A stretch of 64,000 nucleotides of DNA from the NCBI GenBank assembly GCA_963845245.1, contig CAWJRJ010000018.1, forward strand, positions 1 through 64,000, read 5' to 3'. The position numbers and the translations under genes are program-made. The notes below the pieces were generated by a model, which was not told the DNA's origin, ran no database searches, and saw only the letters and a program-made list of their open reading frames with translations. This DNA comes from Nitrospirota bacterium (GTDB taxonomy: Bacteria; Nitrospirota; JACRHJ01). Below are positions 8,961-32,275 of the stretch, piece after piece (positions within the stretch are counted from its first letter, which is position 1; every line of letters begins with the position of its first letter).

Positions 8961-8978
8961 ATCTTGGGGGAGGTACCT

Positions 8979-11103: not shown

Positions 11104-11137
11104 GGAACGGGGTTGCGGTATCCTGCAACCCCGTTCC
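11104..11137 (+). terminator. Terminator-like hairpin after the flotillin-like gene (13-bp stem, weak U-tract)
   Basis: GGAACGGGGTTGC-ggtatcct-GCAACCCCGTTCC. Confidence 0.35.
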
Positions 11138-11400
11138 TCCGTTCGAGCTCTTGAGTCAAGAAAATGGCTGATATCATTAAAAGATATTAATATTGCGGCC
11201 TCGAGCCGTTTTTTTTTTCGGCAGGCCATCTCCGGCTAATATTGCAATTAAATCAATAGCATAATCTGGCTATTAATATATCGGTTAATCAGTGATAGCC
11301 TATACCGTATGTTACCTAACCGATTCACTTTATTTAATAATTTGACATTAATATAAATGAGGTATATTTTTGCACATTATTTTATATACAGGAGATAACG

Positions 11401-11589
11401 ATGGCTAAGCCAAAATCTGAGATCGAGAGAAAGTTCTTTGGGTTCAGGCTGAATCCGGCCTTGGTCATAGGCATAAAAATCCTGGCCGCCAAGAGGGAAA
11501 AACCCGTTAATCAATCCCTTGAGGAGGCGATTTCGGAGTATCTGGCCAGAAATGGGGAAAAGTTACAAAACGAGTCAGCTCAACTTTAA
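11401..11589 (+). CDS. Small ribbon-helix-helix (Arc/CopG-like) DNA-binding protein candidate
   Basis: 62 aa: a beta-strand (KFFGFRLNP) followed by two helices (ALVIGIKILAAKREKP / SLEEAISEYLARN). It lies in a 680-bp AT-rich intergenic island with a TTGACA-N15-TATATT promoter upstream (about 11343-11370). Confidence 0.35.
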   Translation: MAKPKSEIERKFFGFRLNPALVIGIKILAAKREKPVNQSLEEAISEYLARNGEKLQNESAQL

Positions 11590-11782
11590 GTGATTAAAGG
11601 TTCGCGCAACTGCCTTTAGAAACCTGCATTCCTTTCAAAGCCAATACCTGAATCAATAAAATATCAAATAATAATGAGTTTTGTTCCGGTGCCGTTTCCA
11701 GGCAGTGGTCAAGGCTCAGTTATCTGTTGACAAACAAGGCATTATCCAATATCGTATCTTCATATTACAATAGAAGGTACCC

Positions 11783-12467
11783 ATGCCCGACTTATCCGTT
11801 TCCGAAAAACCGACCATCCTGATAATCGAAGATTCAATCGACCTGGTCGAGCTATTGAAGCGCCGCTTTGAGTCTGAACATAACCTTTATTACACCCAGG
11901 ACGGCAGCGAGGGCATAAGGCTGTCCAAGGAGCTCAAGCCGGACATAATCCTGCTGGATGTAAACCTGCCGCGCGTTAACGGATTCGATGTATTGAAGGA
12001 GATACGGGTCGCGGACTCGGCGCGGAAGATAGTGGTGCTGATGATAACCGGCCTTTCGGACCCGGACAACATAGTTAAGGCGCTCAGCCTGGGGGCCGAC
12101 GACTATATCATCAAGCCGTTCAACCTGATGGAGTTGTCCGCGCGCATAAAGTCCCACCTTACTATAAAACATCTCCAGAGACAGATTGTAGGCGTGGAGA
12201 GGCTGAATATCCTCCGGGAGGTGGCAGTCAGCTTCAACCACGAAATAAACAACCCGCTCATGTCCATCTCAACTTTTGCATCTTTCCTTAAAAGAGAACT
12301 CGAAGGTTCAAGCGATGAGGCGAAGGAGAGCGTCGAGGGAATACTGGAGGAAGTGGAGCAGGATCGCTGACATAGTAAAGAAGCTTTCCGCGGCGACAAG
12401 GGCCGCCTCTATTGAATATGGCCCCGGAATCAACATGATCGACTTCGAGCACTTGACGGATGATTGA
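11783..12467 (+). CDS. Response-regulator receiver fused to a HisKA (DHp) domain without an ATPase domain; apparent frameshift near 12360
   Basis: The REC domain (ILIIEDS...DIILLDVNLP...GADDYIIKPF) is followed by the H-box SFNHEINNPLMSISTFASFL. The ORF ends at 12467 with no HATPase_c region. Confidence 0.55.
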
Positions 12468-15149
12468 GAAACTGAAATATCCCGGCCGCATACTTATAGC
12501 GGAAGACGAAGACTCTTTAAGAGAGGCACTTGTAGTATTCCTGAAGTCCAGGGGATATGTCACAGCCGAGGCTGCAGACGGTATCACCGCCTTTGAGATG
12601 GCAGGCCTCTCCAGCTATGACCTCCTCATCACTGACCTGAACATGCCGGGGATGTCCGGTGAAGAACTCTTGGACAAGATGGACGAACTTGAATTTGAAC
12701 GGCGTCCTGCGGTAGTGGTGATGACGGGACATAGCACTCTGGACTCCGCGATCAAAGGCATTAATGCCGGGATTAGCGCCTATATCAGGAAGCCGCTTAA
12801 CCTTGTCGAGATAGAAACTTCGATAAAGACGGCCATCGAGAGGCGGAGGCTGGAGAAGGAACTCAGGGGCTATTACAGGGATCTCGACCGCAAGGTGGAG
12901 GAACGCACGCGGGAGCTCTCCCTGATAAACAAGTTCTCGGCCCTGATAAACAGCTCTTTCTCCCTTGAGAAAATACTCGAAGATGCCGTCGAAGACCTTG
13001 TAAAGTCAATGGAAGCCGATGCTGCATGGATATACCTCTCTGAAGGCAAGCCTCCGCTTTACAGGTTGAAGGCGAGCAGGGGTCTTTCAAAAAGTTTCAT
13101 CGGGGCTGCATCATCGATAGACCCAAAGGCCTTTGCCTCCGTTTCCGGCAGGATGGACGGCCCGGCTTCGATGCTTTGCAACGGCCCGCTTCCTCCCGGT
13201 GCCCCTATTTCCGAAGCAGTGCAAGCGGCGGGTTTCACTTCGGCCGTGCATGCCTCCATCCAGTCCGGCAGGCTCCGCATCGGAAGCATGGGAGTGGCGT
13301 CGAAGACCGGTAAACAATTCCAGGAATCCCACCTGCAGCTCATAGCATCCTTCGGAAACCACATCGGCATCGCGATAGAGAAAATAAGGCTTTACCAGAA
13401 AGAGAAGGCAATATCCAAGGACCTTGAGAAGAAGGTCAACCAGCTCCTTGTCATGAACTGGATGGGAAACAGGGCGAGGGTGTCAAAGGGTCTTGAAGAG
13501 ACCGGGAAGATGCTCGTGTCGTCGATAGCCGAAGCGCTCGGCTTTGACAGGGTCTGTCTCTGGGTATTCGACAAGGATGGGCGCACGCTTTACCTCAAGG
13601 CATGCCACGGTTTGGATGCGAGTTTGTATCGCGACTCATGCCGCGTGGACAGTTCTAAAATAACCTCTTTCAGCCTGGACAGGGGAGAGGCTGTGCTGGT
13701 GACAAGCTCGTTCTGTTCCTTCTCGGACGCAAAGGAGATCTTTGGGAGCATCAGGGAGACTGTCGTCGCGCCCCTTGTCGTGCGTAGCGACAAAGGGGGC
13801 GGAACTCAACTGCTGGGAGCATTTCAACTGCGGGCAGAGTTCCTGCAGCGCATACATGAACAGCGGACTCGCCTGCTGGACTCTTACAGAAAGCTGTATG
13901 AAGACGTCCGAAAGGATGAACCTCCTTGACAAGATGGAGGTCTGCAAAAAGTGCGATGTGTACCAGACGAATACGAGCGGCAAGGGGATCGGGCTGATAT
14001 GCGCAGACAACAGCATCGGTGGCAAAGAGATAACCGGCGATGACGTAAAAGTACTGAACGTATTTGCAAACTCTGCCGCGGCCATAATAGAAAACATGAT
14101 GCTGATGGAGAAGCTCCTTGATGACGAGCACTTCATCGACGGCATGATAACCAACATGTCATCCGGCCTGCTTGTGACGGACATTGACGGAAGGGTCAGG
14201 ATCCTGAACAATGCGGGCGCAGAGATATTGAGGACCGAAAGGGAGTCGCTTGAGGGGCAGTTGCTGGCGGACGTCTACCCGGAGGCCGAGGCAATGCTGA
14301 ACATAGTCGGCTCAAAACTCGGCCGCGAAATGGATATTGATGACTCCGGACGGCATGGTGCCTGTCGGTTTTACCAATTCATACCTTGTGGAAAAGGACG
14401 GGACTGACGGCGGCGTCATAGTCGTATTCAAGGACTTGAGCGATATAAGAAAACTTCACGAACAGCTCAGGGAAAGGGAACACTTCTCGGCTATCGGCAA
14501 GGTGGCCGCGGGCGTCGCCCACGAGATACGCAACCCGCTGTTCGGGATAACCTCGGTAGCCCAGATACTCGGGAGGGAGATAAAGGACGATACGCCGCAG
14601 AAGGCGCTTATCGACGCCATGCTCTCAGAGACTTCCAGGCTCAACACCCTTGTAGAGGACATGCTGCTCTACGGCCGTTCAACGAAACTGTCGCCTCAAC
14701 CGGTTGACCTCAACGAACTGATTGAGGGCGTTGTTCGCTTCCACCAGGGCGGTATAACCGAGAAGGGCTTGAAGATACTGAATAATTTTGACAAGGAGCT
14801 GCCCCAGCTAATGCTGGACCAGGGACAGATGAAACAGGTCTTCCTTAACCTTCTTGTCAACGCGGTCGATGCGTCCGTAACGGGCGGCGAAATAATAGTG
14901 AGGACAGGCGTCAAGGGAGAGTCCGCAGTTATAGAGATCGCCGACAACGGGGTGGGTATCCCCGTAGACGACGTCCCTAAGGTGTTCGACCTGTTTTATA
15001 CCACCAAGGAAAAGGGCACCGGGCTCGGGCTCGCCATATGCAGAAAGATTGTCGAGGACCACGGCGGTACCGTTACCATTTCGAGCATGCCCGGGAAGGG
15101 CACATCGATCCGGATAAGACCTACCGTTACAGGCGGCCAGGGTCAGCGG
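12460..15149 (+). CDS. Hybrid sensor histidine kinase: REC-GAF-GAF(with Cys-rich insert)-PAS-HisKA-HATPase; frameshifts near 13797 and 14340; no in-frame stop before the downstream activator
   Basis: N-terminal REC (RILIAEDEDS...DLLITDLNMPGMSG) and two GAF-like regions. The second GAF contains CWEHFNCGQSSCSAYMNSGLACWTLTESCMKTSERMNLLDKMEVCKKCDVYQ. A PAS domain follows, then HisKA (AGVAHEIRNPLFGI) and HATPase (DNGVGIP...GTGLGLAICRKIVEDHGG). Confidence 0.7.
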
Positions 15150-16498
15150 TTGAACAGGACGCTGCTTATCATAGACGACGAAAAGTCTGTCCGCCAGTCT
15201 CTCCGGTATATGTTCAAGAACAAGGGCTACGATATCCATGAGGCCGGCAATGCGGCCGAAGGGGTCGCGGCCGCAAAAGCCGTCCAGCCTGACCTCGCCA
15301 TACTTGACTACAGGCTTCCCGACAAGACAGGCCTCGACGCGCTGGCCGAGTATAAAGGACGCCGCCCCCGACTGCCTTGTCATCATGCTGACCGCTTACG
15401 GGAGCATCCCGGACGCGGTTGTAGCGATGAAAAAAGGCGCCTTCGACTACCTGACCAAACCCGTAGACATCGACATGCTTGAGATAGCCGTGGAAAGGGC
15501 CGCCGGGGTCAGGCTTCTAAAACAGGAAAACGACAACCTGAAAAGCCTGAGCAGGCATGGCCCCGGAAGGGATCATCGGCGAATCGATGGAGGTCCACAA
15601 GCTGCTGCTCATAATAGGGATACTGGCCGAGAACAAGGACACCACCGTCCTCATCGAAGGCGAGTCCGGCACCGGCAAGGAACTGGTCGCAAAGAACATC
15701 CACAATATGAGCGCGCGCAGGGGAAGCCCTTTCGTGGACATCAACTGCGCGTCCCTTTCCGAGAACCTCCTGGAGTCCGAGCTGTTCGGGCACGAAAAAG
15801 GCTCGTTCACGGATGCAAAAGAGGCGAAGAAGGGGCTGGTCGAGATAGCGAACGGCGGCACGCTTTTCCTTGATGAGATAGGCGAGCTTTCGCCTTCCCT
15901 CCAGCCGAAGCTTCTTGAGGGTGCTTGAGACAAAGACGTTCCGCCGGGTAGGGGGGGTCAAGGATATAAAGGTCGACGTCAGGTTCGTGGCTGCCACGAA
16001 CCGCGACCTCGCTGAAGCGGTGGCTGCGAAGCAGTTCAGGGAGGACCTGTACTACCGTCTGCGCGTCATGCCCATCACGATACCCCCGCTGCGCGAAAGG
16101 GGAAAGGATGTACTGGTGCTTGCAAGGCATTTCGTGTCGCTTTTCTCCCGCGGCCTCAAGAAAGATGATCGAGGGGATCTCGCCGGAGTGTGAACCGTTG
16201 CTCCTTTCATATGGCTGGCCGGGCAACATCAGGGAGTTGAAGAACGTCATGGAACGTGCCGTGATCCTTGCCTCCGGCCCGTATATAATGCCTGAACACC
16301 TTGCCCGTGAGCTTACCGACCTCGCGTCTTCCGGCCCGAAGAGCAGGACTGCCGTCCCAAGCCTTGATAGAGATGGAAGCAAAACACATAACAGCGGTAC
16401 TCACAAGCGCCGGCAATAACCACTCTGAGGCCGCAAGGGCGCTAGGCATAAGCCGCACGACCCTCCTGGCAAAGATCAAAAAATTCCGCCTCGACTGA
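15150..16498 (+). CDS. Sigma54-dependent transcriptional activator (NtrC family: REC-AAA+-Fis HTH); about 4 apparent frameshifts; a TTG start is assumed
   Basis: REC ([14 protein letters not shown]...[14 protein letters not shown]), then the AAA+ sigma54-interaction domain ([34 protein letters not shown]), then a C-terminal HTH ([22 protein letters not shown]). It is in the same frame as the upstream kinase, with no stop between them. Confidence 0.7.
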
Positions 16499-16608
16499 CC
16501 CGTTCAATGTAGTGTTTCTGAACAGCCTGCCTGTCCAATTTTTGTACACACAGACACACCGATAATGATCTAAGTATGCATATTGTTGATATATATGTAT
16601 TTTATTTG

Positions 16609-16624
16609 TGGCACGGGACTTGCT
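16609..16624 (+). promoter_or_regulatory. Sigma54 (-24/-12) promoter upstream of the chemotaxis operon
   Basis: TGGCACgggacTTGCT matches TGGCAC-N5-TTGCW exactly. It lies 53 nt upstream of the first che-operon gene and about 110 nt downstream of a sigma54 activator gene. Confidence 0.65.
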
Positions 16625-16676
16625 TTTTCGATAGCCAGTGCAACCGTAGGTGCGTGTTCAAATGCTGGAGGATTAA

Positions 16677-17078
16677 ATGGAGATGACAAAAAGGATATTG
16701 ATTGTCGACGACGAGCCGACCATCCTGCTGAGCCTCTCATACTGCCTGAAGAACGAGCATGTTGAGGTGATAACCTCTTCGAGGATCGAGGCGGCGGAGG
16801 AAGCGCTTTCCAGGTACCCATTCGACCTGGTAATCGCGGACATAAGGATGAGCGGGATGTACGGCATCGAGGGGCTTGAGCTTCTAAGCTATGTGAAAAA
16901 GATCAGGCCGGAGACTGCGGTTATAATAATGACCGCATACGGTTCGGACGAGATAAAGGCGGAGGCTCTTAGACGCGGCGCGTTCTGGTATTACGACAAG
17001 CCGCTGAACATAGAGCACCTGTTGGGAAAGGTAAGCGAACTTGGTATCCCCATCTCAGGCATGGCGTCCTTGAGCTGA
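16677..17078 (+). CDS. Single-domain response regulator (CheY-like)
   Basis: REC domain: ILIVDDEPT...DLVIADIRMSGMYG...GAFWYYDKP. Confidence 0.85.
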   Translation: MEMTKRILIVDDEPTILLSLSYCLKNEHVEVITSSRIEAAEEALSRYPFDLVIADIRMSGMYGIEGLELLSYVKKIRPETAVIIMTAYGSDEIKAEALRRGAFWYYDKPLNIEHLLGKVSELGIPISGMASLS

Positions 17079-17107
17079 TTATCAGCTGGCAAATAACAGG
17101 GGGAAAT

Positions 17108-17497
17108 ATGCTAAAGAAGATTCTTATAGTCGACGACTCATCCCTTTTGCACCAGATGTACAAGCTGGTATTCATGCGCTACAAGGGTTGCAAGGTGATC
17201 TCGGCTATGAACGGGCTGGAAGCGCTCGACAAGCTCTCGCAGGAAGACGGTATAGAGCTTGTGCTGCTGGACATAAACATGCCTGTGATGAACGGGCTTC
17301 AGTTCTTGCAGAACATCCAGGAAGACGGCAATTACAAGGGGCTGCCCATCATAATAGTCAGCACCGAGGGGAAGGAAGAGGATACGCTCAGGGGCCTGTC
17401 CATGGGGGCCAGGGGCTACATCAAAAAGCCGTTCCAGCCCGCCGAGCTGCACACGATGATAGAGAAGATCTTTTCCGGCAGCGCCGTCACCGCATAA
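17108..17497 (+). CDS. cheY: Chemotaxis response regulator CheY
   Basis: REC domain of 129 aa (ILIVDDSS...LVLLDINMPVMNG...GARGYIKKPF), immediately upstream of cheA. Confidence 0.85.
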   Translation: MLKKILIVDDSSLLHQMYKLVFMRYKGCKVISAMNGLEALDKLSQEDGIELVLLDINMPVMNGLQFLQNIQEDGNYKGLPIIIVSTEGKEEDTLRGLSMGARGYIKKPFQPAELHTMIEKIFSGSAVTA

Positions 17498-17506
17498 GAG
17501 GCTAAA

Positions 17507-19186
17507 TTGGAAGAATTCGATACTTCCGGTCTTATACAAGAATACATCGACGACGCCAGGGGGCATCTTGAAAAGCTGGACTCTACGCTCCTTGAGATCG
17601 AGAAAGAGTCGGGCCAGGGGTTAGATGTTGAACTTGTCTCAGACCTGTTGGGCGCGCTTCACACCCTGAAGGGAAATTCGGGGATGATGGGTTTTGAGTC
17701 CCTCCAGAAATACGTCCATGAGCTGGAGAGCGTATTCAAATCACTCCTCGAAGGGAAAAACGGGCTGGATGAGGCGTTCCTGCAGACTCTTTTCGAGGCT
17801 GCCGGTTCTATCCGCGAGACCCTTGAACAGATCGAACGAGACCCGAAGTCCCAACCGGACCTCACCGCGCAAAAGCGCGTCCTTGAAGGACTTGCGGCCA
17901 ACGGCACCACGGGCCAGGCAAAGGCCCCAGCCTCGCCGCAGAAGGTAGACAGCTTTAAATACATAGCAGAAAAATCCAACATATTAAAAGTCGACTTCGA
18001 GCGGCTCGACCACCTTCTGAACCTTGCAGGCGAACTCGTGATACACAGGACGAAGCTTTCGCAGGTCGAGAAAAAGTTCAAGGAGCTGAAGGCCGAAAAG
18101 GAACTTGCCGCAGAGCTGACCGAAGCCAACTTCCTTATACAGAAGGCGGTAACAGAACTCCAGGAAGCGATAATGAAGGTCAGGATGCTTCCTGTACGCC
18201 ATGTATTCCAGCGTTTCCCCAGGATGGTCCGGGACCTCGCAAGGGAACGCGGCAAGGAAATCGAGATAATCTTCAAGGGCGAATCCACCGAACTCGACAA
18301 GACGGTCATCGACGAGATAGGCGAACCACTCCTCCACCTTATCAGAAACTCGGTGGACCACGGGATAGAGATGCCCGATGAACGTGTCAGGAAGAACAAG
18401 TCGCCGGTAGGCGAGATCGTGCTTTCCGCGGCCCAGGAAGGAAACAACATAATCATAACGGCGTCCGATAATGGCGCCGGCATCGACGTGGAGTCGGTCA
18501 GGGCCAAGGCCGCCCACATGTATACCGAGGAATCCCTCGAAGGCATGGCGGAGGATAACGTCCTCGACCTGATATTCGAGCCGGGTTTTACCACCGCAAG
18601 CGAAGTTACCCAGATATCCGGACGCGGCGTCGGGCTCGACGTCGTACGAAAGAGCGTATCGAACCTCGGCGGGATCGTGGAGGTTGCAAGCCAGCGTGGC
18701 ACAGGCACTACTTTCACCATCAAGCTTCCGCTCACCCTGGCGATCATATCGGCACTGCTGGTAAAAGGCGGAGACGAACTGTATGCGCTTCCGCTCTCCT
18801 CTGTTATCGAAAGCCTGAGGTTGGAGCCGTCCGAGTTGCAGACCGTGAACAACCGGGAGGTCATAATGCTCAGGGACAGGGTTCTCCCGCTCGTGCGCCT
18901 TTCTGAACTCTTCCACATTGAAAAGGCGCATGACCTGGGCCGCCTTTATGTCGTTGTCGTTGGCAGGGCCGAAAAAAAGGTCGGGCTTGTCGTGGACTCG
19001 CTCATGGGAAGACAGGAGATAGTCATAAAGACGCTTGGCGATTATGTCGGGGAGAACGCCGGGATTGCCGGCGCCACCATACTCGGAGACGGAAGCGTAG
19101 TGCTTATACTTGATGTCGCGGGCCTTATCGAGAAAAACATGCTCAAGGCCGACAGGAGAAGTTCGATATACAAGGAGGTGACGTAG
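17507..19186 (+). CDS. cheA: Chemotaxis histidine kinase CheA (TTG start)
   Basis: Hpt domain (HTLKGNSGMMGF), dimerisation region, HATPase (DNGAGID, GRGVGLDVV), and a C-terminal CheW-like domain. Confidence 0.9.
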   Translation: MEEFDTSGLIQEYIDDARGHLEKLDSTLLEIEKESGQGLDVELVSDLLGALHTLKGNSGMMGFESLQKYVHELESVFKSLLEGKNGLDEAFLQTLFEAAGSIRETLEQIERDPKSQPDLTAQKRVLEGLAANGTTGQAKAPASPQKVDSFKYIAEKSNILKVDFERLDHLLNLAGELVIHRTKLSQVEKKFKELKAEKELAAELTEANFLIQKAVTELQEAIMKVRMLPVRHVFQRFPRMVRDLARERGKEIEIIFKGESTELDKTVIDEIGEPLLHLIRNSVDHGIEMPDERVRKNKSPVGEIVLSAAQEGNNIIITASDNGAGIDVESVRAKAAHMYTEESLEGMAEDNVLDLIFEPGFTTASEVTQISGRGVGLDVVRKSVSNLGGIVEVASQRGTGTTFTIKLPLTLAIISALLVKGGDELYALPLSSVIESLRLEPSELQTVNNREVIMLRDRVLPLVRLSELFHIEKAHDLGRLYVVVVGRAEKKVGLVVDSLMGRQEIVIKTLGDYVGENAGIAGATILGDGSVVLILDVAGLIEKNMLKADRRSSIYKEVT

Positions 19187-19347
19187 TTGCAGACCCCCGA
19201 CCAGACCCAAAAAGATAGTCCTGCCCTCGTCCGGGCTTGCGGAAGACATACTTGCATCGGTTGCAGGGGTCCAGGGTCTGGCCGAGGCGCAGGCCGCAGC
19301 CATGAAAATTACCCGGACGGCCAAGGAAGAAGCCGACGTGGACGATC

Positions 19348-19779
19348 TTGCACCTTGTAAGCTTCTTGTTGAACAGCGAAGAGTACGCCCTCGATATCTC
19401 GCTGGTCCAGGAGATCATCAAGCTCAGCGGATGGACCAGGGTGCCGAATGCCCCGCGCCACGTAAAGGGCGTCATAAACCTACGCGGGAGAATAATCCCA
19501 GTAGTCGACCCGAAGCTGAAGATGGGGCTCCACGAGTCGCCGCTTGACGGCCGGAATGCCAGGATAATAATAGTCGAGACCGGCGGCCGGGTGATCGGTA
19601 TGGCCGTCGATTCGGTCAACCAGGTACTGAAGCTCCCTGCTGACGTCATAGAGCCCCCGCCGGATACGGTAACAGGGGTGGACGACGGATATATCAAAGG
19701 CGTCGGAAAGCTGTCCGGCAGGATAATAATACTCTTAAACGTTGATAAGGTTTTGGGGAAAGACGAAAAGGCGGCCTGA
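19348..19779 (+). CDS. cheW: Chemotaxis coupling protein CheW (TTG start; the N-terminus may extend upstream via a frameshift)
   Basis: CheW fold motifs: EEYALDISLVQEI, VINLRGRIIPVVD, RIIIV, GMAVDSVNQV. Confidence 0.8.
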   Translation: MHLVSFLLNSEEYALDISLVQEIIKLSGWTRVPNAPRHVKGVINLRGRIIPVVDPKLKMGLHESPLDGRNARIIIVETGGRVIGMAVDSVNQVLKLPADVIEPPPDTVTGVDDGYIKGVGKLSGRIIILLNVDKVLGKDEKAA

Positions 19780-19817
19780 CGAAGGTCTGGTAACGCGTTC
19801 AAAAAAGGAGAAACCCG

Positions 19818-22364
19818 ATGTTCAGAAATCTCAAGATAGGCATACGGCTGGCGATGGCTTTCGGCGTTGTTTTGTTGCTCCTGGCGCTGGTGTCCTGGGA
19901 GGGCCTGCACAGCATGGGCATCATGGACACTGCTGCCATGCACATAGTAAAGAAAAATTACGCCAGGGGAGTGGTTCTCGAACATGCAAATGAGAACCTG
20001 AACGAAATGTACCAGTCTCTTTCGGTTATCATGTCAAGCCGCGACAAGGGCGAGCAGCTAAAAAAGGTCAAGGACCTTGAAACGTCCAGGAAAAACTTTA
20101 ATGACGCGATGGACATTTACGAGAAGACCCAGGACCATCAAGAAGGCCTCGATATGCTCGCAAAGTTTAAAGCGGTTTTAAGTGAATCAATAAAGCCCAT
20201 GGACGAAGTGATAAAACTGTCCCTTGCCAACAAGCCTGAAGATGCAAGGCTTCTTTATCTGAATAAAGTCGAGCCGCAGCAGCACGAAGTACGCAATGTG
20301 TTCGACCCGATGGTGGTATTTGAAGAGCAGAGGATAGACTTCCGCTACAAGCAGACGGTAGACGAATACAGAAGCAGTATCAAGATGATGCTGTTGGTCG
20401 GCGGGATAGCCATAGTCCTTGTAGTTATAATGAGCTTCTTCCTGACCAGGGGTATAACCAAACCGCTCGAAGCTGCGCTCAAGGTGGCCAACAAGGTGTC
20501 TGACGGCGACCTCACCGCCTCGATTGCGGTAAGGTCAAAGGACGAGGTCGGGCAGCTGGGCGATGCCATCAACCGTATGGTGGCGGGACTAAAGGAGATG
20601 GTCGGCACCGTCAACCAGAGCGCTGCCCAGGTGGCTGCCGCCGCCGACCAGGTCAACGCAAGCTCCCACCAGATACAGAAGGGCGCTCAGACTCAGGCGA
20701 GCGCGGCTGACGAGACGTCTTCTAGCATGGAAGAGATGGCGGCCTCCATACAGATGGTCGCCCAGAACGCCGGCGACCTCGCCTCGAACGTGGACGAGAC
20801 CTCGGCTTCGATAAACCAGATGGTCGCATCCATCGAGCAGGTCGCCAGGAACTCCGGCGCAATGGCCTCGTCCGTATCCGAGACCTCCGCGACTGTCGAG
20901 CAGATGGCCGCGTCGATAGACCAGGTTGCAAACGATACGGAAAACCTTTCGGCATCCGTGCAGGAGACATCCGCCACCATCGACCAGATGATGGCATCAA
21001 TCGAACAGGTCGCCAGAAACTCAGACATGCTCTCCGGTACCGTGGCCGAGACGTCCTCGACCGTAGAGGAGATGGCCGCGTCTATCAAACAGGTGGCGGG
21101 CAACGTAGCCGAAGCCGGCCGTATATCCCAGAAGGCAGCCGAGGATGCGGTCGCGGGCGGCGAGGCTGTCGAGCTTACCATCGAGGGCATAAACCGCATA
21201 GCCGATACCATGAAGGTGACCTCGGAAGTGATAGGCAGCCTTGGTAGACGCTCTGAAGAGATAGGCAAGATCATAGGCGTGATTGAGGATATAGCAGACC
21301 AGACCAACCTCCTCGCGCTGAACGCGGCGATAGAGGCTGCCAGGGCTGGTGATGCGGGGCGCGGCTTTGCCGTGGTCGCCGATGAGGTGCGGAAACTGGC
21401 TGAGAGGTCTGTCGTAGCCACCAAGGAGATTGGTGAGGTGATAGAGCAGGTGCAGCTTGAGACCTCGAAAGCCGTTAAAACAGCCGAGGTGGGCGCTGCC
21501 GAAACGCTGGAAGGCAAGAAGCTGGCGGACAAGGCTGGGGCGTCCCTGAAGCGTATCCTCGACAGCGTTGGGGCCACGAACCAGATAATGGCGGAGATAA
21601 ACGATGCGGCCGCCGAGCAGTCATCCGCCGCAAACATGGTGCTCAAGTCCGTGGAGAACATGAACCAGGTCACCGACCAGGTTATAACCGCAGTCAAAGA
21701 GCAGGCGATGGGCTCGAACCAGATAAGGAAGGCCGTAGAGACTATGAACCGCACCACCCAGCAGGTAGCAGGCGCCATGAAGGAGCAGGCTATGGGCGGA
21801 AAGCAGATAAGGGTCGCGGTCGAGGACATGAACAGGGTGACGAACGAGGTGAACATAGCCGCCAAGGAACAGGCGCAGGGCACCGTGCAGATAATGAAGG
21901 CGGTCGAGAATATGAACTCGATGACCCAGCAGGTCGCGAACGCCACCTCTGAGCAGAAGCGCGGCGGAGAACTTGTAGTCAAGGCCGTCGAGAACATCTC
22001 GGACATAGCCCGCGAGAACCTCGCTGCCGTGAAGCAGATGACCGCCGCCTCTGAGAACATCACCTTCCAGGCCGAGTCGCTCCAGCGCGCCATAAGCATG
22101 TTCAAGGTGAGTGACTTGAGCTCGGTCCAGGCCTGCTGGGATATCCTGAACTGCGACATGGCAAACCGGATGAAATGCCCGGCCTACAAGAGCCCCGAGA
22201 AGAGGTGCTGGCTGATAGAGGGCACATGGTGCAAGGGCGTCTTGCAGGGCGACGCGAGGAGCAAGCTGGCGAACTGCATGCACTGCAATGCGTTCAAGGT
22301 CATGCAGGGTGTGAGCTCCCTGCCTGCGGCGAACGTCCGCTCGATAGGCAGCGACAGGTCTTAA
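19818..22364 (+). CDS. Methyl-accepting chemotaxis protein with an extended signalling domain and a C-terminal 7-Cys module
   Basis: TM1, a periplasmic 4-helix-bundle-like region, TM2, and HAMP. The MA domain is very long, with tandem 21-aa repeats ([21 protein letters not shown] x4; AxKEQAxGxxQIxKAVExMN x4) and the [14 protein letters not shown] core. The C-terminus reads [54 protein letters not shown]. Confidence 0.9.
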
Positions 22365-22374
22365 GGAGAGCCGG

Positions 22375-23287
22375 ATGACATTAGTGCTGAGCCCCGAGCT
22401 TTTCGGCAAGTTCCAGGAGATCGTGTACGACAGGAGCGACCTGCATTTCGCCCCCTCAAAAAGGGTGTTCTTCGAACGCCGGCTCCGTGAGAACCTCCTG
22501 ACGGACGGGTTTGAGGATTTCGAGTCGTACTACGCGTCCCTTAAAAGCGATACCGACAAACTCGATGTGCTCGTGCAGGACCTGACCACGAACCAGACGT
22601 TTTTCTTCAGGAACCAGGCACAGTTCGAGGCGTTGCGGGACAAGGTATTTCCGGAACTCATCGAGTCGAAGAACCGCGAGGCCATGAGGTCATGGTCGGC
22701 GCCCACCCAGAACCAGAGTCGGGCCATGGGCCTGAAAATATGGAGCGCGGGCTGCTCGACCGGAGAAGAGGCCTACTCGGTCGCGTTCACTCTCCTCGAA
22801 GTGCTCAAATACCCGAGGGCATGGGACGTCAGGATAATCGGCACCGACATAAAGCGCAGCGCCCTGGCTGCCGCCCAGAGAGGGATTTATGAAGGGCCTT
22901 CACTGAAAGAAACCGACCCCGCCCTGGTGGAGAAGTATATGGAAAAGGTCGACGGCGGTTGGGCAGTAAAAGAGCTTCCCAGGAGCCTCGTACGTTTCGG
23001 AGAGGCAAACCTCAAGGCCCTGTCTCTCTGATAGCGGGCCGCTGCCGCATACGGACGGTGCCGGCGGGAAGGACTATTTCGATATAATCTTCTGCCGGAA
23101 CGTCATGATCTATTTCGACCGCGAAGGCCAGCAGAGGCTTGTGGACAACCTGTATGAACGGCTCGCCCCCGGAGGGTATCTTTTTACGGGCGATTCAGAG
23201 CCGCTCCACCTCTTCCGTCACAGCTTTGTCAAGACGGAAGGTACCGATGCGCTCTATTACAGAAAACCGGATCAGGGAGCCATCTAA
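22375..23287 (+). CDS. cheR: Chemotaxis methyltransferase CheR (apparent frameshift near 23035)
   Basis: CheR N-terminal region (FEDFESYYASLKS, TNQTFFFRN) and SAM-binding site (IWSAGCSTGEEAYS). It continues after a frameshift as FCRNVMIYFDREGQQRLVDNLYERLAPGGYLF. Confidence 0.75.
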
Positions 23288-24936
23288 TGGCCGAGGCTTC
23301 TATGGATTTATTCGAACTGATTGGGTCTTCCGACGACTATGTGCGCCTGAAGGCTATAGAACAGGCGGCGCTTGAGCCGGAGGAAAGGTCGGTCCCGCTT
23401 CTTCTCAGGGCGATGCGTGACGGCGACATAAGGTTGCGGAACATGGCACGCGACCTGACGCTCAAGAAGGAACCGGAGACGCTGCTGCCGTACCTTGAGG
23501 CGGCAATGCGTGACGGCAACGACGCGGACCTGAGAAATGCGGCTATGGACATATACGCAGCCCTCTCGTCCCTGGCCGTGCCGGATTTGAACCGCCTTGT
23601 TACGGACGCCGACCCGGAAATAAGGAACTTCGCCTGCGTCCTCCTGGGGAACATCAGGGACATACAGAGCGTGCCAGCCCTGCTTGGCGCATTAAAAGAC
23701 GAAGAAACCAACGTCAAGCACGCGGCTGCGGAGGCCCTCGGCAAAACCGGGGACCCGTCGGCCGTGCCGGGCCTGCTGGAGGCGCTCGCGAGCGAGGCCG
23801 ACTGGTGGAGCGCATTCCCGATCGTTGCGGCATTGGGGGAACTGAAGGACGAAAGGGCGGTCTACCCGCTGTTGAAGCGCCTTGACGACGAACCGCTGAG
23901 GGTCAGCATCGCCATGGCGCTGGGTGACATAGCAAGCCCGTCCGCCCTTGAGACGATGCTGCCGCTTCTGGACGACGAAGATGACGGCGTGAAGACCCAG
24001 GCCCTCCTTGCAGTGGTCAAGATACAGGAACGCACACTTCGCGAGAACCCCTCAGAAGAATCAGAAACGGCACACTGCAGGTTTCTTGAGAAGATCAACA
24101 CATCCTGGTTAAGGCAGCATCTTCTGGACCTTTTGCCGGCATCCGACCCAGAGATCAAAAGGGCCGCACTGGTCGCGCTCGGCTGGTTGAGGGAGAGCAG
24201 GGCGGTCCCGAGGATGATAGACGCCTTGAAGGATGAGCCGCTTTCGGAGTCGGCCCTCGATGCCCTTGTTTCGATAGGCCTGCCTGCATTGAACGACGTG
24301 GAACTAAGCCTGGAGCACCCGGTCGGGATGGTCCGGCAGGCGCTGGTGAGGTACCTCGGCAGCATACGGCTTCCGTTCAGCGGACCGCCGCTCAGGCAGA
24401 TGCTAAAGGACGAACTCAGCATAGTCAGGGCCCAGGCGGCGCTCGCGCTGGGAAACCTCGGGGACATCGACGCCGCGGACGGGCTCATAGAGGCGCTTGG
24501 AGACGTGAACCCGGAGGTGCAGGAGTCCGCGGTCGCGGCGCTCGCAAACCTGAACCCGCAGATAATATGCGGCAAGCTCCTCCCGTACCTTAACGACAAC
24601 AACCAGCGCTATATCTTCCTGGCGGCCGAGGCCCTCGGCCAGCTCGGGCTCGACGAGGCCATAAACCCGCTGTCAACGTTGCTGATGGACGAACGCGACA
24701 TTATCAGGGAGATGGCGGTAAAGTCGATCGGGCTTATAGGCGGGGCCAACTCGGTCGGCCCGCTCTTCACCGGCCTCGGCGACAAAAGCCCCAGGGTGAG
24801 GCAGCAGGCGATCCAATCGCTTGGAAGGGTCAAAGAAAAGCTTGTGCTCAAGAAGCTGATACTTTTGCTGGAGGAACCGGACGACACCGTAAAATATTTC
24901 GCAATCAGGTCCTTGAAACAGTATGGCTCACGCTGA
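23287..24936 (+). CDS. HEAT-repeat (PBS-lyase type) protein
   Basis: At least 12 repeats of the form AxxALGxxGDxxAVPxLxxxLxDExxxVRxxAAxAL. Confidence 0.7.
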   Translation: MAEASMDLFELIGSSDDYVRLKAIEQAALEPEERSVPLLLRAMRDGDIRLRNMARDLTLKKEPETLLPYLEAAMRDGNDADLRNAAMDIYAALSSLAVPDLNRLVTDADPEIRNFACVLLGNIRDIQSVPALLGALKDEETNVKHAAAEALGKTGDPSAVPGLLEALASEADWWSAFPIVAALGELKDERAVYPLLKRLDDEPLRVSIAMALGDIASPSALETMLPLLDDEDDGVKTQALLAVVKIQERTLRENPSEESETAHCRFLEKINTSWLRQHLLDLLPASDPEIKRAALVALGWLRESRAVPRMIDALKDEPLSESALDALVSIGLPALNDVELSLEHPVGMVRQALVRYLGSIRLPFSGPPLRQMLKDELSIVRAQAALALGNLGDIDAADGLIEALGDVNPEVQESAVAALANLNPQIICGKLLPYLNDNNQRYIFLAAEALGQLGLDEAINPLSTLLMDERDIIREMAVKSIGLIGGANSVGPLFTGLGDKSPRVRQQAIQSLGRVKEKLVLKKLILLLEEPDDTVKYFAIRSLKQYGSR

Positions 24937-24939
24937 AGC

Positions 24940-25697
24940 GGCCCGCCCTCTGATAAAGCTCCTGGACGGGGACTCGCCAAAAAACATCAAAGTATGCCGT
25001 CATAGATGCGCTGGGTGTGATCGGAGACAGGGACGCATGCGGGCGGCTTCTGGAGCTGTCCCACTCTAACGACGCCGACCTGGCCATGGTGGCTATCAAG
25101 TCTCTCGGTGAGCTGGGATGTGCCGATGTAAAAGACGACCTCCTGGGCTTTCTGGCCCACGATGACTGGAGCATAAAGGCTGTCGCGGCCGCATCTCTGG
25201 GACGCGTCGGAGGAGAAGGGGTACTGGATGCTCTGGCCTGCCAGCTCAGCTCGCGTGACAGGGTCATCTGCTCAGGAGCTATAAAGGCGTTGGGCGAGCT
25301 GGGAGACCCTGCAGCCTCAAGGTTCCTTGTGCCGCTGCTTGCGGACGCACAGTTTCAGAAACAGGTGCTGGACTCACTTGCATTGCTGGGGCCAGGTTCA
25401 CTGAAAGGGACCATAGAGGCGCTGCGCGACGCACCGCCTGCTCTGCTCCTGAAGGGTATACGCCTGGTGGGCAAGATGAGAGACCCTGAAGGGGTCGATT
25501 ATCTCGCCGGGCTTCTGCGCCACCCAGACCCATCAATAAGAAAAGCCGCTGCTGCTGCCCTCGGCGACTCATGCCTGCGTGAGGCACTGGATGTCCTGGA
25601 CGAAACCGTCATGAACGACGAGGAACCTATAGTAAGGGACGCAGCCGCGTCAGCGGCATCGATCATAAGGAACCAGGAATTTTTAAATGCTAATTAG
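24940..25697 (+). CDS. Second HEAT-repeat protein; frameshifted at the N-terminus and possibly continuous with the previous gene
   Basis: ARPLIKLLDGDSPK...YAVIDALGVIGDRDACGRLLELSHSNDADLAMVAIKSLGELG, then further HEAT repeats up to 25697. Confidence 0.5.
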
Positions 25698-26589
25698 AAC
25701 TTACTCGGACGAACTAAGCGCAAGGGCGGCAGTGCAGCTGCAGCAGGCGGCGCAGGCGCCCCAACTACAGGATTATGAATTCAGGCTTCTGCGTGACTAT
25801 ATCCACCAGTACTGCGGGATATTTTACGACGACGCAAAGTCCTCCACCCTGGCATCCAGGCTGTCCTTCAGGCTGAAGCTGCTGGGAATCAGTTCTTATT
25901 CGGAATATTACAATTATCTCAAATTCAACCCGCGCTCCGAGGAAGAGATAGAGGACCTGATTCCTCACCTGACGAACAACGAAACGTATTTTTTCAGGGA
26001 GATGAACCAGATATCCTTTCTCATAGATGAACTCGCCGGGAAACTGAAGGAAGGCGGACCGGGAAAAAAGACGTTGAAGGTCCTGTCGTGCGGGTGCTCT
26101 TCAGGCGAAGAGGCATTCACCCTCGCCATGCTCCTTGAGGAGGCGGGCGCGTATTCTGCAGGGCACAGCATAGAGATAACCGGCATAGACATTGACAGGA
26201 AGGTCATAGAAAAGGCCGTGAAAGGCGAATATACGAGCTATTCCCTGAGGGCCGCCGAAAAAGAGCGGATAGACCGCTATTTTAAAAGTGAAGGGGACAA
26301 ATACATCCTTGACAGGCGCATAAGGGACCGTGTGACATTCAAGCGGGGAAACCTCCTCGACCCCGCCACGTTCAATTCGTTCCGGGACGTGGACGCGATA
26401 CTTTGCAGAAACGTGTTCATCTATTTCTCGGACGGCGCAATACGGAGCATAGCAGGCTTTTTCCACGGGATAATATCCGGCAAGGGGCAGCTCTTGCTAG
26501 GGCATTCTGAATCGCTTTCGCGCATAACGGACATATTCAGGCCGGTACGTAACCCGAACGTCATAGTCTACACCAAAAAGGATTTTTAA
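25687..26589 (+). CDS. cheR: Second CheR-type chemotaxis methyltransferase
   Basis: NNETYFFRE, VLSCGCSSGEEAFTLAML, ILCRNVFIYF. Confidence 0.8.
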   Translation: MLIRTYSDELSARAAVQLQQAAQAPQLQDYEFRLLRDYIHQYCGIFYDDAKSSTLASRLSFRLKLLGISSYSEYYNYLKFNPRSEEEIEDLIPHLTNNETYFFREMNQISFLIDELAGKLKEGGPGKKTLKVLSCGCSSGEEAFTLAMLLEEAGAYSAGHSIEITGIDIDRKVIEKAVKGEYTSYSLRAAEKERIDRYFKSEGDKYILDRRIRDRVTFKRGNLLDPATFNSFRDVDAILCRNVFIYFSDGAIRSIAGFFHGIISGKGQLLLGHSESLSRITDIFRPVRNPNVIVYTKKDF

Positions 26590-26593
26590 CCTC

Positions 26594-27661
26594 ATGGCCA
26601 AAAAGATACGTGTCCTTGTCGTAGACGATTCCGCGTTTATGAGGAAGGCCCTGGTCAGGATGCTTTCATCAGACCCGTCGATAGAGGTGCTGGATACGGC
26701 ATCCGACGGCGAGGATGGATACCGGAAGACCATGAAACTGAGGCCGGACGTTGTCACGCTGGACGTGCGCATGCCAGGGATGGACGGGATAACCGCACTG
26801 AGAAAGATAATGTCCGACTGTCCCGTTCCGGTAATAATGCTCTCCTCATTGACCAGCGAGGGTGGCGAGGTCACACTCAGGGCCCTTGACATCGGCGCCG
26901 TGGACATCATCGACAAGTCCAAGGCGCATACCGCCATGGATATTCTGGAGATAGCTGGCGAACTGCTTGACAAGGTGAAGGCGGTCGCTGGTGTGGACGT
27001 GGCCAAGATAGCCCGCAGGGCCGTGTCTGTCCCTGAGGCGCACCAGGATCCTTATTCTCCTCCTCTTCACAGCGGGAAGGTCGACATGATAGTGGTGGGT
27101 GCGTCCACGGGCGGCCCGCCCGCGCTCCAGGATATCCTTACAAAGCTTCCTGCGGACCTCCCGGCCGCGATACTGATAGTGCAGCATATGCCGTTGGGGT
27201 TTACCGCATCGCTGGCTGAAAGGCTGAACAGGCTCGCGCCGATTGCGATCTCGGAAGCGTTCGACGGTAACAGGGTAAAGCCCGGCCGGTGCCTGATCGC
27301 GCCATCCGGCCTGCATATGACCATCAGGAAGGACGACGATGGTGTATTTGTGCGCCTGCTGGAGGAGCCAGTGAAGACCCTTCACCGTCCGTCCGTCGAT
27401 ATCCTGATGTCGTCTGCGGCGGAGGTAGTGGGCAGCAGGGCCCTTGGGGTACTGCTCACAGGCATGGGCGCCGACGGGGCCAAGGGGATGAAGGCGTTGC
27501 ATGATGCGGGTGGCAGGACTATAGCGCAGGACGAAGAGAGCTGCGTGGTATACGGGATGCCCAAGGTGGCGGTCGAACTGGGTGGAGTCGACAGGTCTCT
27601 ACCGCTGCGTCAGATACCCACCGCCATTTTGCAGGAGCTCGGCGCCGTGTCGCTCGGCTGA
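26594..27661 (+). CDS. cheB: Chemotaxis methylesterase CheB (REC plus CheB catalytic domain)
   Basis: REC (VLVVDDSAFMRKAL...DVVTLDVRMPGMDG) and methylesterase domain (VVGASTGGPPAL, HMPLGFT, GMGADGAKG, the S-H-D catalytic context). Confidence 0.9.
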   Translation: MAKKIRVLVVDDSAFMRKALVRMLSSDPSIEVLDTASDGEDGYRKTMKLRPDVVTLDVRMPGMDGITALRKIMSDCPVPVIMLSSLTSEGGEVTLRALDIGAVDIIDKSKAHTAMDILEIAGELLDKVKAVAGVDVAKIARRAVSVPEAHQDPYSPPLHSGKVDMIVVGASTGGPPALQDILTKLPADLPAAILIVQHMPLGFTASLAERLNRLAPIAISEAFDGNRVKPGRCLIAPSGLHMTIRKDDDGVFVRLLEEPVKTLHRPSVDILMSSAAEVVGSRALGVLLTGMGADGAKGMKALHDAGGRTIAQDEESCVVYGMPKVAVELGGVDRSLPLRQIPTAILQELGAVSLG

Positions 27662-27685
27662 CAGCCTGGCAAACCAAAAAGAAAA

Positions 27686-27707
27686 GGGCCGACACATGGG
27701 TCGGCCC
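27686..27707. terminator. Bidirectional hairpin between the convergent cheB and acs genes
   Basis: GGGCCGAC-acatgg-GTCGGCCC; on the minus strand it is followed by a TTTTCTTTTT tract. Confidence 0.55.
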
Positions 27708-27713
27708 CTACAG

Positions 27714-29700
27714 CTAAAGTCTTCCTTCCACCAGGTTGTCTACTACGGTCGGGTCTGCAAGGGTGGAGGTGTCTCCCAGGTTATCAAGCTCGTTTGCGGC
27801 TATCTTCCTGAGTATCCTCCGCATTATCTTGCCGCTTCTGGTCTTTGGCAGTCCGGGGGCGAACTGGAGCTTGTCCGGCGCGGCTATCGGACCGATGACG
27901 GTCCTGACGTGTCCTACGAGTATCTTCTTCAGCTCGTCAGAGGCCGTGAAGCCGTCCTTGAGGGTTACGTAGACGTAGATGCCTTCGCCCTTGATGTCGT
28001 GCGGGTAGCCTACGACCGCGGCCTCCGCGACCGCCTCGTGCGAGACGAGGGCGCTCTCCACCTCGGCGGTACCCAGCCTGTGGCCGGACACGTTGATGAC
28101 GTCGTCGATCCTGCCCATCAGCCAGAAGTCACCGTCCTCGTCAAACCTGGCGCCGTCACCGCTGAAGTAGACGCCCGGGAACCGGCTGAAGTATACTTCC
28201 TTCATGCGGGTATTCTCAGGGTCGCCGTAGGTGCCGCGCAGCATCCCGGGCCAGGGCCTCTCGATTACCAGGTATCCGCCCTCGTTGGCCCCGGCGGGCG
28301 AGCCGTCCTCTCTTATTATCTTTGGCAGTATGCCCGGGAATGGCCTGTTGGCCGAGCCGGGCTTCAGTGTCATTGCGCCGGGTATGGGTGTGATCATGAA
28401 GCCGCCGGTCTCGGTCTGCCACCACGTATCGACGATGGGGAGCTTCCTGCTGCCGATGTTCTTGTGGTACCACATCCAGGCCTCGGGGTTTATGGGTTCT
28501 CCGACCGTGCCGAGCACCCTCAGGGACGAGAGGTCGTAGTTCTGAACCCACTTCTCGCCCTCCTTCATGAGCGCGCGTATGGCGGTCGGTGCGGTGTAGA
28601 ATATGTTCACCCCGAACTTCTCCACTATGTCCCAGAACCTGCCCGGGTTCGGGTAGGTGGGTATGCCCTCGAACATGAGGCTCGTGGCCCCGTTTGAAAG
28701 GGGGCCGTAGACCACGTAGCTGTGGCCCGTTACCCAGCCTATGTCGGCGGTGCAGAAATGTATGTCCTCTTCCTTGTAGTCGAATGTCCACCTGAACGTG
28801 AGGTTCGTATAGAGCAGGTAGCCGCCGGTCGTGTGGAGCACGCCCTTCGGTTTGCCGGTCGAGCCGGACGTGTAGAGGATGAACAGGGGGTCCTCGGCGT
28901 CCATCCATTCCGGTTCGCAGTAGTTGCAGACATGTGCAGTCGTTCATTTCGTCGTGCCACCACGTGTCGCGGCCCGGCGCCATGTCAATGCCGTCCTTGC
29001 CGGTGCGGTTAACGACTATTACGCTTGTCACGGTCGGGCACTCGTTCAAAGACTCGTCCGCGTTGACCTTGAGAGGGACTATCCTGCCGCCCCTGATGCC
29101 AGCGTCGGCGGTGATGAGCATGCTCGACTTGCAGTCCTGGATCCTGTCCCTCAGCGCGCTTGCGGAGAAGCCGCCGAACACTATGCTGTGTATAGCGCCG
29201 ATCCTGGCGCATGCGAGCATCGATATCGCCAGTTCCGGGATCATGGGCAGATATATTGTAACCCGGTCGCCCTTCTTGACGCCCTTCCTCAGCATGACGT
29301 TGGCGAACCTGTTCACCTCGCGGTAGAGCTGCTGGTATGTATAGGTCTTGTACGTGCCGTCGTCGGCCTCCCATATTATGGCGGCCTTGTTCCTGAAGGT
29401 AGGGCTCTGGACGTACCTGTCAAGGCAGTTGTAGGATACGTTGAGCTTGCCGCCCTTGAACCAGTTTATCTCGGGTTTGTGAAAGTCGTATTCAAGGACG
29501 CTGTCCCATTTCTTGTACCACGTAAGGTTCTTTTCGGCCATCTCGGCCCAGAAGTCTTCCGGGTCCTCGATGGACCATTTGTAGAGCTTTTCGTACTCTT
29601 CCATGCTCTTTATATGGGCATTCTTTGAGAATTTCTCGCGTGGCGGGAATGTCCTTGATTCGCTGGAATGTACCTCTATACCCATGTCCGATTCCGACAT
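27714..29700 (-). CDS. acs: Acetyl-CoA synthetase (AMP-forming); apparent frameshift near 28905-28940
   Basis: N-terminal half ([33 protein letters not shown]) and C-terminal half ([48 protein letters not shown]) sit in two overlapping frames. Confidence 0.85.
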
Positions 29701-31281: not shown

Positions 31282-31327
31282 TAGTTCTCTCCTTAAGCAT
31301 CCCGCGATGATTGACGCCACTTTGTTT

Positions 31328-31909: not shown

Positions 31910-32034
31910 TTATACCTCCCGTACAATCAGATCTGTCGATTTGATGCCCAATACCTCGGGCGTTTTTTTTGAACGCCAAAAATGTAGCCAAAAGAACTTT
32001 TACGTCACCTCCTTCCGGATATATGACTATATTT

Positions 32035-32051
32035 AGCAACAAAGATGCCAG
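32035..32051 (-). promoter_or_regulatory. Sigma54 (-24/-12) promoter upstream of satP-porin-acs
   Basis: The minus strand reads TGGCATctttgTTGCT, about 125 nt upstream of the satP start. Confidence 0.55.
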
Positions 32052-32160
32052 AATATATAACGACGTTTGAGAATTATGTATCTAGTTGATAATAAAGGCG
32101 TAAATTGGGAGGTTTCGCCGTCTGGCGCGTACGGACGAGGCTTTCGGGTTCGGCGAGAGA

Positions 32161-32275
32161 TGTTACTTTAAGTAATGCAGAAATAATCTATTGTTAAATT
32201 CCTTTAAATAACAAGCGAATGCATATGTTACTTATGGTAACGCAGTGGGGTCGGAATAAGTTACTTTTTGTTACA
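32161..32275 (-). promoter_or_regulatory. Cluster of TGTTAC/GTAACA inverted and direct repeats (candidate enhancer sites for the adjacent sigma54 activator)
   Basis: TGTTACtttaaGTAAT (32161), TTGTTA-N12-TAACAA (32191-32214), TGTTACttatgGTAAC (32226-32241), GTTACtttttGTTACA (32260-32275), all between the activator gene and the sigma54 promoter. Confidence 0.4.

Follow-up and report, generated by a model that had tools for sequence, protein, structure and literature searches.

The closest described relatives of the locus reported here are regulatory pairs of the NtrB/NtrC type, in which a kinase and a REC-AAA+-HTH_8 activator are found beside a -24/-12 promoter with two upstream dyads. The locus occupies about 16 kb (11.7-27.7 kb) of the window, by which we mean the whole 64-kb stretch of contig CAWJRJ010000018.1 that was analysed. 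Judged by sequence comparison it is a single conserved signalling module, and its host group is probably the Nitrospirota bacteria. It has the elements of the NtrB/NtrC type but differs in its target, which is a chemosensory (che) operon, in the REC-GAF-GAF(two-CW)-PAS architecture of the kinase and in an extra REC-DHp protein encoded in one operon with the kinase and activator. The explanation that best fits the locus as a whole, and which we consider rather likely, is that the kinase/activator pair switches on the che-like operon via a sigma54 promoter. The freshest element is the uncharacterised two-CW domain, present in both the kinase and the receptor.

Genetic linkage of a kinase and an NtrC-like activator to a che-like cluster of alternative cellular function is also known from the CrdS/CrdA-Che3 system of Myxococcus xanthus (PMC3147164). 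There, no CheY is present and CrdA is the output, whereas the module described here has two CheY-like receivers and its sigma54 promoter would drive the che genes; CrdS/CrdA-Che3 as described in PMC3147164 has neither a two-CW domain nor a HEAT protein. As to che clusters behind a sigma54 promoter, PMC2577667 reports sigma54 sites predicted upstream of Geobacter che clusters and a sigma54-regulated system in Rhodobacter sphaeroides. The text read for these cases describes no dedicated adjacent kinase/activator pair sharing the sensor domain of the receptor, which the module here does have. For the HEAT protein, PMC11514114 cites Darnell et al. 2014 for M. xanthus Che7, where the HEAT-repeat protein Cpc7 partners CheY7. 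In both cases a PBS-lyase-type HEAT protein lies inside a che-like cluster and has a plausible single-domain receiver partner, proposed here from co-location alone. The protein here, by contrast, has ~800 residues and its gene is flanked by two cheR genes, and it is by its repeat type that we liken it to Cpc7. For Geobacter che clusters, our literature search turned up no mention of a HEAT protein. An initial annotation of the window had called the two CheRs and the HEAT proteins atypical. Two CheR paralogs are indeed present, but PMC11514114 and PMC2577667 offer precedents both for HEAT proteins within che clusters and for sigma54 control of che operons, which makes these features less atypical than was claimed.

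Two further comparisons concern output and input. Wsp-type cyclic di-GMP (c-di-GMP) pathways resemble the module in that a REC-HD(HD_5) gene in sister operons suggests a second-messenger output; the window, however, is without this gene, and the enzyme would be of the phosphodiesterase type rather than a GGDEF cyclase. Some chemoreceptors carry a C-terminal cytoplasmic sensor domain, such as the zinc-binding CZB domain of TlpD. Like CZB, or PilZ on Tlp1/Cbp1, a small domain placed after the signalling hairpin could feed in a cytoplasmic cue, but the Cys pattern of two-CW is different. Known relatives exist for each ingredient, and the module is a well-supported variation on known themes, with no overturning of current ideas. 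If our explanation is true, the module would be a conserved natural example of one sensor-domain type used at two levels, in expression of the pathway and in signalling through it. It would also offer a functional handle on two-CW, which is found in more than 1,000 protein clusters (MCPs, kinases and c-di-GMP enzymes).

A conserved kinase/activator pair precedes the che operon

We found related clusters by CheA-based and kinase-based searches, and 167 loci were fetched. The closer set comprises five independent lineages besides the window: L161, L162/163, L164 (a Nitrospirae metagenome-assembled genome (MAG), GCA_016212105.1), L165/166 and L167. The more distant set, L001-L004, consists of Nitrospirota-type MAGs with ~47% CheA identity. 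In all five closer lineages the genes for the REC-DHp protein (221-227 residues), kinase (884-896) and activator (447-451) lie directly 5' of the che operon, which then runs RR1 (133-137), CheY, CheA, CheW (~205), methyl-accepting chemotaxis protein (MCP; 840-850), CheR (308-319), HEAT (794-798), CheR (300) and CheB. L164 has one added PepSY gene between the activator and RR1 genes. The kinase/activator/che synteny, which the initial annotation had put forward for comparison, is therefore kept in five related lineages, and both kinase and MCP contain two-CW at every related locus where both genes are visible, the MCP copy being terminal. The activator gene is directly upstream of the operon in the distant L001 and L002 as well. 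A metagenome scan with the MCP returned mainly unrelated MCPs, and the only relatives among them were L081-L083.

In the window, Pfam and NCBIfam gave the same gene order: kinase, activator, then an 11-kb operon RR1-CheY-CheA-CheW-MCP-CheR-HEAT-CheR-CheB of closely packed genes (16677-27661). The order proposed initially, from kinase to cheB, was confirmed by Pfam, with the corrections that HEAT-HEAT is one gene and that the REC-DHp gene had been left out. Of the cluster's proteins RR1 is conserved best, with 86% identity to L161 and 63-70% to L001-L004. CheR2 is common to all relatives, while CheR1 and the long HEAT protein are common to the closer set. The L161 CheW has 205 residues, and the stretch KKIVLPSSGLAEDIL is common to it and the window CheW.

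The regulatory proteins were compared with their orthologs after repair of single-base insertions (see below). Removal of five single bases gave an activator with full-length REC-AAA+-HTH_8 domains (Pfam REC, Sigma54_activat, AAA lid and HTH_8); without repair it is split over six frames. The repaired protein has the receiver Asp, a Walker A motif and GSFTDA replacing the GAFTGA loop, and aligns with the L001 activator over its full length at 50% identity. All activator orthologs are intact, that of L162 having the same 447-residue length. Likewise, the repaired kinase (896 residues) matches the length of the intact orthologs P0152 and P0153, which are 87-88% identical to it. The REC-DHp protein has an H-box and no ATPase domain; it is the conserved first gene of the regulatory operon, in equal position in L161-L167, and could be a fused Spo0F/Spo0B-like relay or a phosphatase.

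The predicted sigma54 promoter and its upstream dyads

Sigma54 promoters are recognised by GG at -24 and GC at -12. TGGCACGGGACTTGCT at 16609-16624 (+) is the sole exact match to TGGCACN5TTGCW in the window, where shuffled sequence predicts 0.12 such matches; the motif had been reported as perfect, and it is. Permitting one mismatch added two further sites, not above chance. The motif stands on the coding strand, 52 nt 5' of the RR1 ATG, within the 178-bp gap between the activator stop (16498) and that ATG (16677). A TGGCAY-N5-TTGC element was found 5' of RR1 in all ten related clusters, 32-80 nt ahead of the start codon, and this conservation reaches clusters with only 47% CheA identity.

Alignment of the six closest intergenic regions revealed four conserved islands only: two dyads, the invariant -24/-12 element and a short stretch, the last of which is not common to the window and L162. 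Both dyads are 17 bp long (TGT-N11-ACA), spaced by 24 bp, and they lie 61-101 bp upstream of the -24 element. In the whole 64 kb the pattern matches at these two sites and nowhere else. The same pair, 24 bp apart, is found at the same place in L161, L162 and L163, and in L002 two TGTCC-N7-GGACA copies lie in tandem at a distance of 20 bp. NtrC-class activators have their upstream sites ~80-150 bp from the promoter, a placement with which the two dyads agree. Dyads and -24/-12 element together form the footprint expected of an enhancer-binding protein (EBP) on a sigma54 promoter, which makes the adjacent activator the obvious candidate for its regulator. The five-lineage synteny, the promoter in ten of ten clusters and the conserved dyads all support the sigma54 wiring that had been suggested for the operon.

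In L164 a second perfect sigma54 motif (10642-10657) was observed ahead of the inserted PepSY-domain gene, and the activator regulon may be larger in that lineage.

The two-CW domain in kinase and receptor

The Cys module that the initial annotation had seen in both kinase and MCP was identified as NCBIfam NF045718, two_CW_domain (35.7 bits for the MCP copy and 27.9 bits for the kinase copy, cutoff 35). The domain has no Pfam model, only this NCBIfam entry. Both copies show the identical pattern of seven Cys and two Trp over ~60 residues, CW-x4-C-x3-7-C-x9-CW-x6-C-x14-C-x2-C. In the kinase, the insert breaks a hairpin of a second GAF domain and is kept in nine of nine kinase orthologs. That this host domain is a GAF, as had been proposed, was corroborated by hhalign, which aligned GAF1 with GAF2 minus the Cys module at 94.8% probability (E 5e-8).

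We searched for the wider family exhaustively with a profile of the two window copies, covering 1.84 billion proteins, and at E <= 1e-3 obtained matches to 1,227 representative clusters; a word-indexed search with the MCP C-terminus gave one fragment. The top 114 members all retain six Cys and the first Trp, and conservation of the seventh Cys and of the second Trp is 90% or higher. Partner domains in these 114 were MCPsignal (44), HAMP (31), HisKA/HATPase (~15) and GGDEF (10), plus PAS, Cache and HD. As to its place in the protein, 54 of the top 151 carry it at the N-terminus, 52 at the C-terminus and 20 internally, and in 25 it stands alone. At the level of our fetched loci it is present in 11 of 167 only. 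This distribution appears to be that of a sensor module, and because the domain is spread across signalling proteins we read two-CW as an input domain. Most likely it would bind a metal or an Fe-S centre and report a cytoplasmic redox or metal-related cue, and we hypothesise that both copies read the same cue.

Other two-CW proteins were noted in the distant set. Stand-alone two-CW open reading frames (ORFs) of 76-87 codons lie between cheW and the MCP gene in L002 (5171-5398) and L003 (3654-3914), and in L002 a convergent kinase gene of transmembrane (TM)-HAMP-GAF(two-CW) type comes right after cheB (11129-13990).

Receptor architecture and pathway output

The signalling hairpin of the MCP has arms of ~250 and 253 residues around a tip near residue 509, which corresponds to ~72 heptads. 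The longest receptor class known to us has 64 heptads, which this MCP would exceed. Each arm contains five 28-residue repeats (residues 285-424 and ~599-740), and methylation-type motifs, EE/EQ-x-x-A/G-S/T, recur at 305, 361 and 417 and at 600, 628 and 684. The repeats were seen at the protein level only, as Tandem Repeats Finder detected no DNA repeats in the MCP gene. The long receptor with its repeated methylation-type units, the two CheRs and the giant HEAT protein are together a hint of an unusual adaptation apparatus.

No flagellar or motor genes were found in a Pfam survey of the window's large ORFs or among the called genes of L161-L167. A REC-HD(HD_5) gene lies between RR1 and CheY in four of the five related lineages; neither the window nor L162 has it. 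The gene is a hint that the pathway ancestrally had a cyclic-nucleotide output. Given the lack of motility genes nearby and the presence of the REC-HD(HD_5) gene in most sister clusters, we read the output of the pathway as probably not flagellar.

Proposed mechanism and alternative explanations

In our proposal the regulatory operon would make the REC-DHp protein, a cytoplasmic kinase with two-CW in GAF2 and the NtrC-type EBP. We infer a phosphotransfer by which the kinase would set EBP phosphorylation, with the REC-DHp protein as a possible relay step. Phosphorylated EBP would bind both dyads (16508-16548) and, from there, activate the promoter at 16609-16624, leading to transcription of the 11-kb che-like operon. 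The operon would then build a chemosensory array around the long MCP that ends in the second two-CW domain; two CheRs, CheB, two single-domain receivers and the 800-residue HEAT-repeat protein would also serve this array. If two-CW senses metal or redox, a related cue would both induce the pathway and be read by it. A more far-reaching version, which we put forward tentatively, is a coherent feed-forward arrangement. It would use a two-CW metal or Fe-S sensor twice, within a GAF domain of the kinase that licenses transcription and at the tip of a 72-heptad receptor whose methylation-helix units are repeated about five-fold and which two CheRs and an 800-residue HEAT scaffold serve, and would make the array a distinct class with extended adaptation capacity and a non-motility output.

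Several observations weigh against these proposals. Among the related clusters, L004 has the weakest promoter element, with a degenerate -12 (TTGT), and is without an adjacent activator within 6.5 kb. The kinase copy of two-CW scores under the NCBIfam cutoff, and the kinase and MCP copies are only ~20% identical and are different length variants (loop length). Metal binding by two-CW is a guess from its seven invariant Cys; our literature search found neither a paper nor an experiment on a 'two-CW domain', and the PDB contained no sequence or fold relative of it. The module contains six to seven receiver domains, and other phosphotransfer routes are equally possible. Finally, frameshifts break the genes for the kinase, activator, CheW, CheR1 and HEAT protein, and taken literally the sequence is that of a dead system.

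The strongest rival is an arrangement of the CrdS/CrdA-Che3 kind. Here the activator would serve chiefly as a common output of the kinase and CheA, and how much of it is phosphorylated would be set by CheA or a CheA-fed receiver. Transcription would then be under the control of the che pathway, and the operon could at the same time regulate itself. In M. xanthus, che3 and the gene for the NtrC homolog CrdA lie together, and CrdA is phosphorylated by CrdS and dephosphorylated by CheA3 (PMC3147164). In our module the N-terminal REC of the kinase, the REC-DHp protein and the NtrC-like RR1 could join both pathways, and the large number of receiver domains would allow feedback of this type. However, the two single-domain receivers here have no counterpart in the CheY-less Che3, and the conserved dyads and sigma54 promoter stand directly before the che operon, their only occurrence in the 64 kb. 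In addition, che3 of the Myxococcales is an insertion into the crdSAB locus, whereas our module has been conserved in its entirety. We consider this rival unlikely, and keep to control of the che-like operon by the adjacent kinase/activator pair.

Less probable again is flagellar chemotaxis under a sigma54 flagellar hierarchy, with the kinase and activator as counterparts of FlgS/FlgR or FlrB/FlrC. Elsewhere, che and flagellar genes are documented or predicted to be under sigma54 (PMC2577667), and at the distant locus L011 a HEAT-containing che cluster is followed by a kinase, an activator, MotAB, a perfect sigma54 motif and FlgBC-FliEF. This explanation fits poorly with the survey for flagellar and motor genes given above, with a kinase that is a multi-sensor REC-GAF-GAF-PAS protein, with the REC-HD_5 protein encoded in the operon of four out of five related lineages and with dyads that are found before the che operon only.

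Frame disruptions and the remaining alternatives

Between 11.8 and 25 kb we counted 14 disruptions of the reading frame, all +1. Stop-free segments from 11774 to 16495 step through frames 2, 0, 1, 2, 0, 1, 2, 0, 1, 2, every change being +1, and as given the kinase spans three frames and the activator six. The initial annotation had placed both genes directly upstream of the promoter, and this order was borne out, although neither is a single ORF in the window as given, a break that the annotation had missed. L162, which has 84-85% DNA identity to the window and in which all these genes are intact, was used as reference. Uncompensated 1-nt insertions were located at 12358, 13792, 14337, 15118, 15351, 15551, 15914, 16166 and 16369, of which those near 13792, 14337 and 15118 fall in the kinase and the last five in the activator. 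No uncompensated deletions relative to L162 were found in the coding genes of the module. The gene fragments have no in-frame stops, and their conservation equals that of intact neighbours.

Two gene models were rejected on these grounds. As given, the kinase has no stop codon before the activator receiver domain, but a natural kinase-activator fusion was discarded: the insertion near 15118 removes the stop, and the orthologs are separate or overlap by 4 nt. The two HEAT proteins of the initial annotation proved to be a frameshift artefact. Near 24925 and 24985 the HEAT repeat passes out of frame 1, briefly into frame 2 and then into frame 0, so that one gene of ~800 codons crosses two +1 shifts; relatives have a single HEAT protein of 794-798 residues.

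Similar breaks were observed elsewhere in the window, in the genes for DUF748, acetyl-CoA synthetase and cytochrome oxidase subunit I, and a topoisomerase I ORF without its N-terminal part probably has a break of the same type. The split-gene spans are 3368-6968, 11783-16498, 19188-19779, 22375-25697, 27714-29700 (-) and 44310-45921 (-), always +1 along the gene. The window looks like an insertion-prone assembly. Since the relatives have these genes unbroken and housekeeping genes of the window are split too, the frameshifts are very probably insertion-type sequence errors and not decay of the locus. The opposite view, that kinase, activator, CheW, CheR1 and HEAT are true pseudogenes and the system is non-functional in this organism, would account for the 14 disruptions. 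We regard it as highly improbable in the light of the insertion-only pattern against L162, the stop-free and conserved fragments, the like breaks in unrelated genes and the intact close relatives.

That the sigma54 motif is a chance match, with transcription of the operon coming by read-through from the regulator genes or from a sigma70 promoter, can practically be dismissed: although 11 of 100 shuffled windows hold one perfect match or more, the motif is correctly oriented and placed, adjoins the activator gene and is conserved in all ten clusters while the flanking DNA is not.

Coordinates and neighbouring features

Features of the module are collected in Table 1. The hairpin 3' of cheB is likely the end of the operon, and Rfam gave no element between 11 and 28.5 kb.

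Table 1. Features of the signalling module and its predicted control region (window coordinates unless a locus is named).
Feature	Position	Strand	Basis and remarks
Sigma70-like promoter candidate, TTGACA-17-TATCGT	11727-11755	+	5' of regulatory operon; consensus scan, 10/12 matches; weak
REC-HisKA protein (DHp only, without ATPase domain), ~227 aa	11783-12467	+	Pfam Response_reg and HisKA; first gene of regulatory operon; 1-nt insertion near 12358
Sensor histidine kinase, REC-GAF-GAF(two-CW inserted)-PAS-HisKA-HATPase, 896 aa repaired	12460-15153	+	Pfam
Kinase two-CW domain (7 Cys, 2 Trp) in hairpin of second GAF	13799-13987	+	NF045718, 27.9 bits; own hidden Markov model, 93 bits
NtrC-type sigma54 activator, REC-AAA+-HTH_8, 447 aa repaired	15150-16498	+	TTG start overlaps kinase stop
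Upstream activator site 1 (predicted), dyad TGTAGTGTTTCTGAACA	16508-16524	+	Conserved island in alignment of 6 related loci
Upstream activator site 2 (predicted), dyad TGTCCAATTTTTGTACA	16532-16548	+	24 bp from site 1
Sigma54 -24/-12 promoter (predicted), TGGCACgggacTTGCT	16609-16624	+	Predicted transcription start near 16635
RR1, single-domain receiver, NtrC-like REC	16677-17078	+	GGAGG at 16667-16671
CheY-like receiver	17108-17497	+	Pfam/NCBIfam
CheA, Hpt-dimerisation-HATPase-CheW	17507-19186	+	Pfam; P2 domain would not fit
CheW with N-terminal extension, ~200 aa repaired	19188-19779	+	+1 shifts near 19210 and 19340
MCP, 848 aa, 4HB-TM-HAMP-MCPsignal-two-CW	19818-22364	+	two-CW at aa 772-830, ~22131-22307
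CheR1, divergent paralog, ~303 aa repaired	22375-23286	+	+1 shift near 23030
HEAT/PBS-lyase-type repeat protein, ~800 aa, one gene	23287-25697	+	+1 shifts near 24925 and 24985
CheR2, the CheR kept in all related clusters	25687-26589	+	Pfam
CheB, REC-methylesterase	26594-27661	+	Pfam
GC-rich hairpin between convergent cheB and acs	27684-27709	unstranded (scan called minus)	Terminator scan; 10-bp stem, 7 GC pairs
REC-HD_5 genes of related loci	L161 6127-7188; L164 12611-13672; L165 14632-15687; L167 14631-15692

Upstream of the module, between a hemerythrin-PAS gene and the REC-DHp gene, the window has ~2.9 kb extra compared with L162 (8844-11717). This extra DNA holds the gene for a 702-residue SPFH/Band_7 protein (8964-11072).

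A second kinase (33625-36564) and an intact sigma54 activator (32271-33632) are encoded on the minus strand of the window, in the region 29800-36564. Along that strand the activator gene is followed by a near-consensus motif, TGGCATctttgTTGCT (32035-32050), and then by a phosphate-porin-like gene running from 31909 to 29800, which is seemingly frameshifted.

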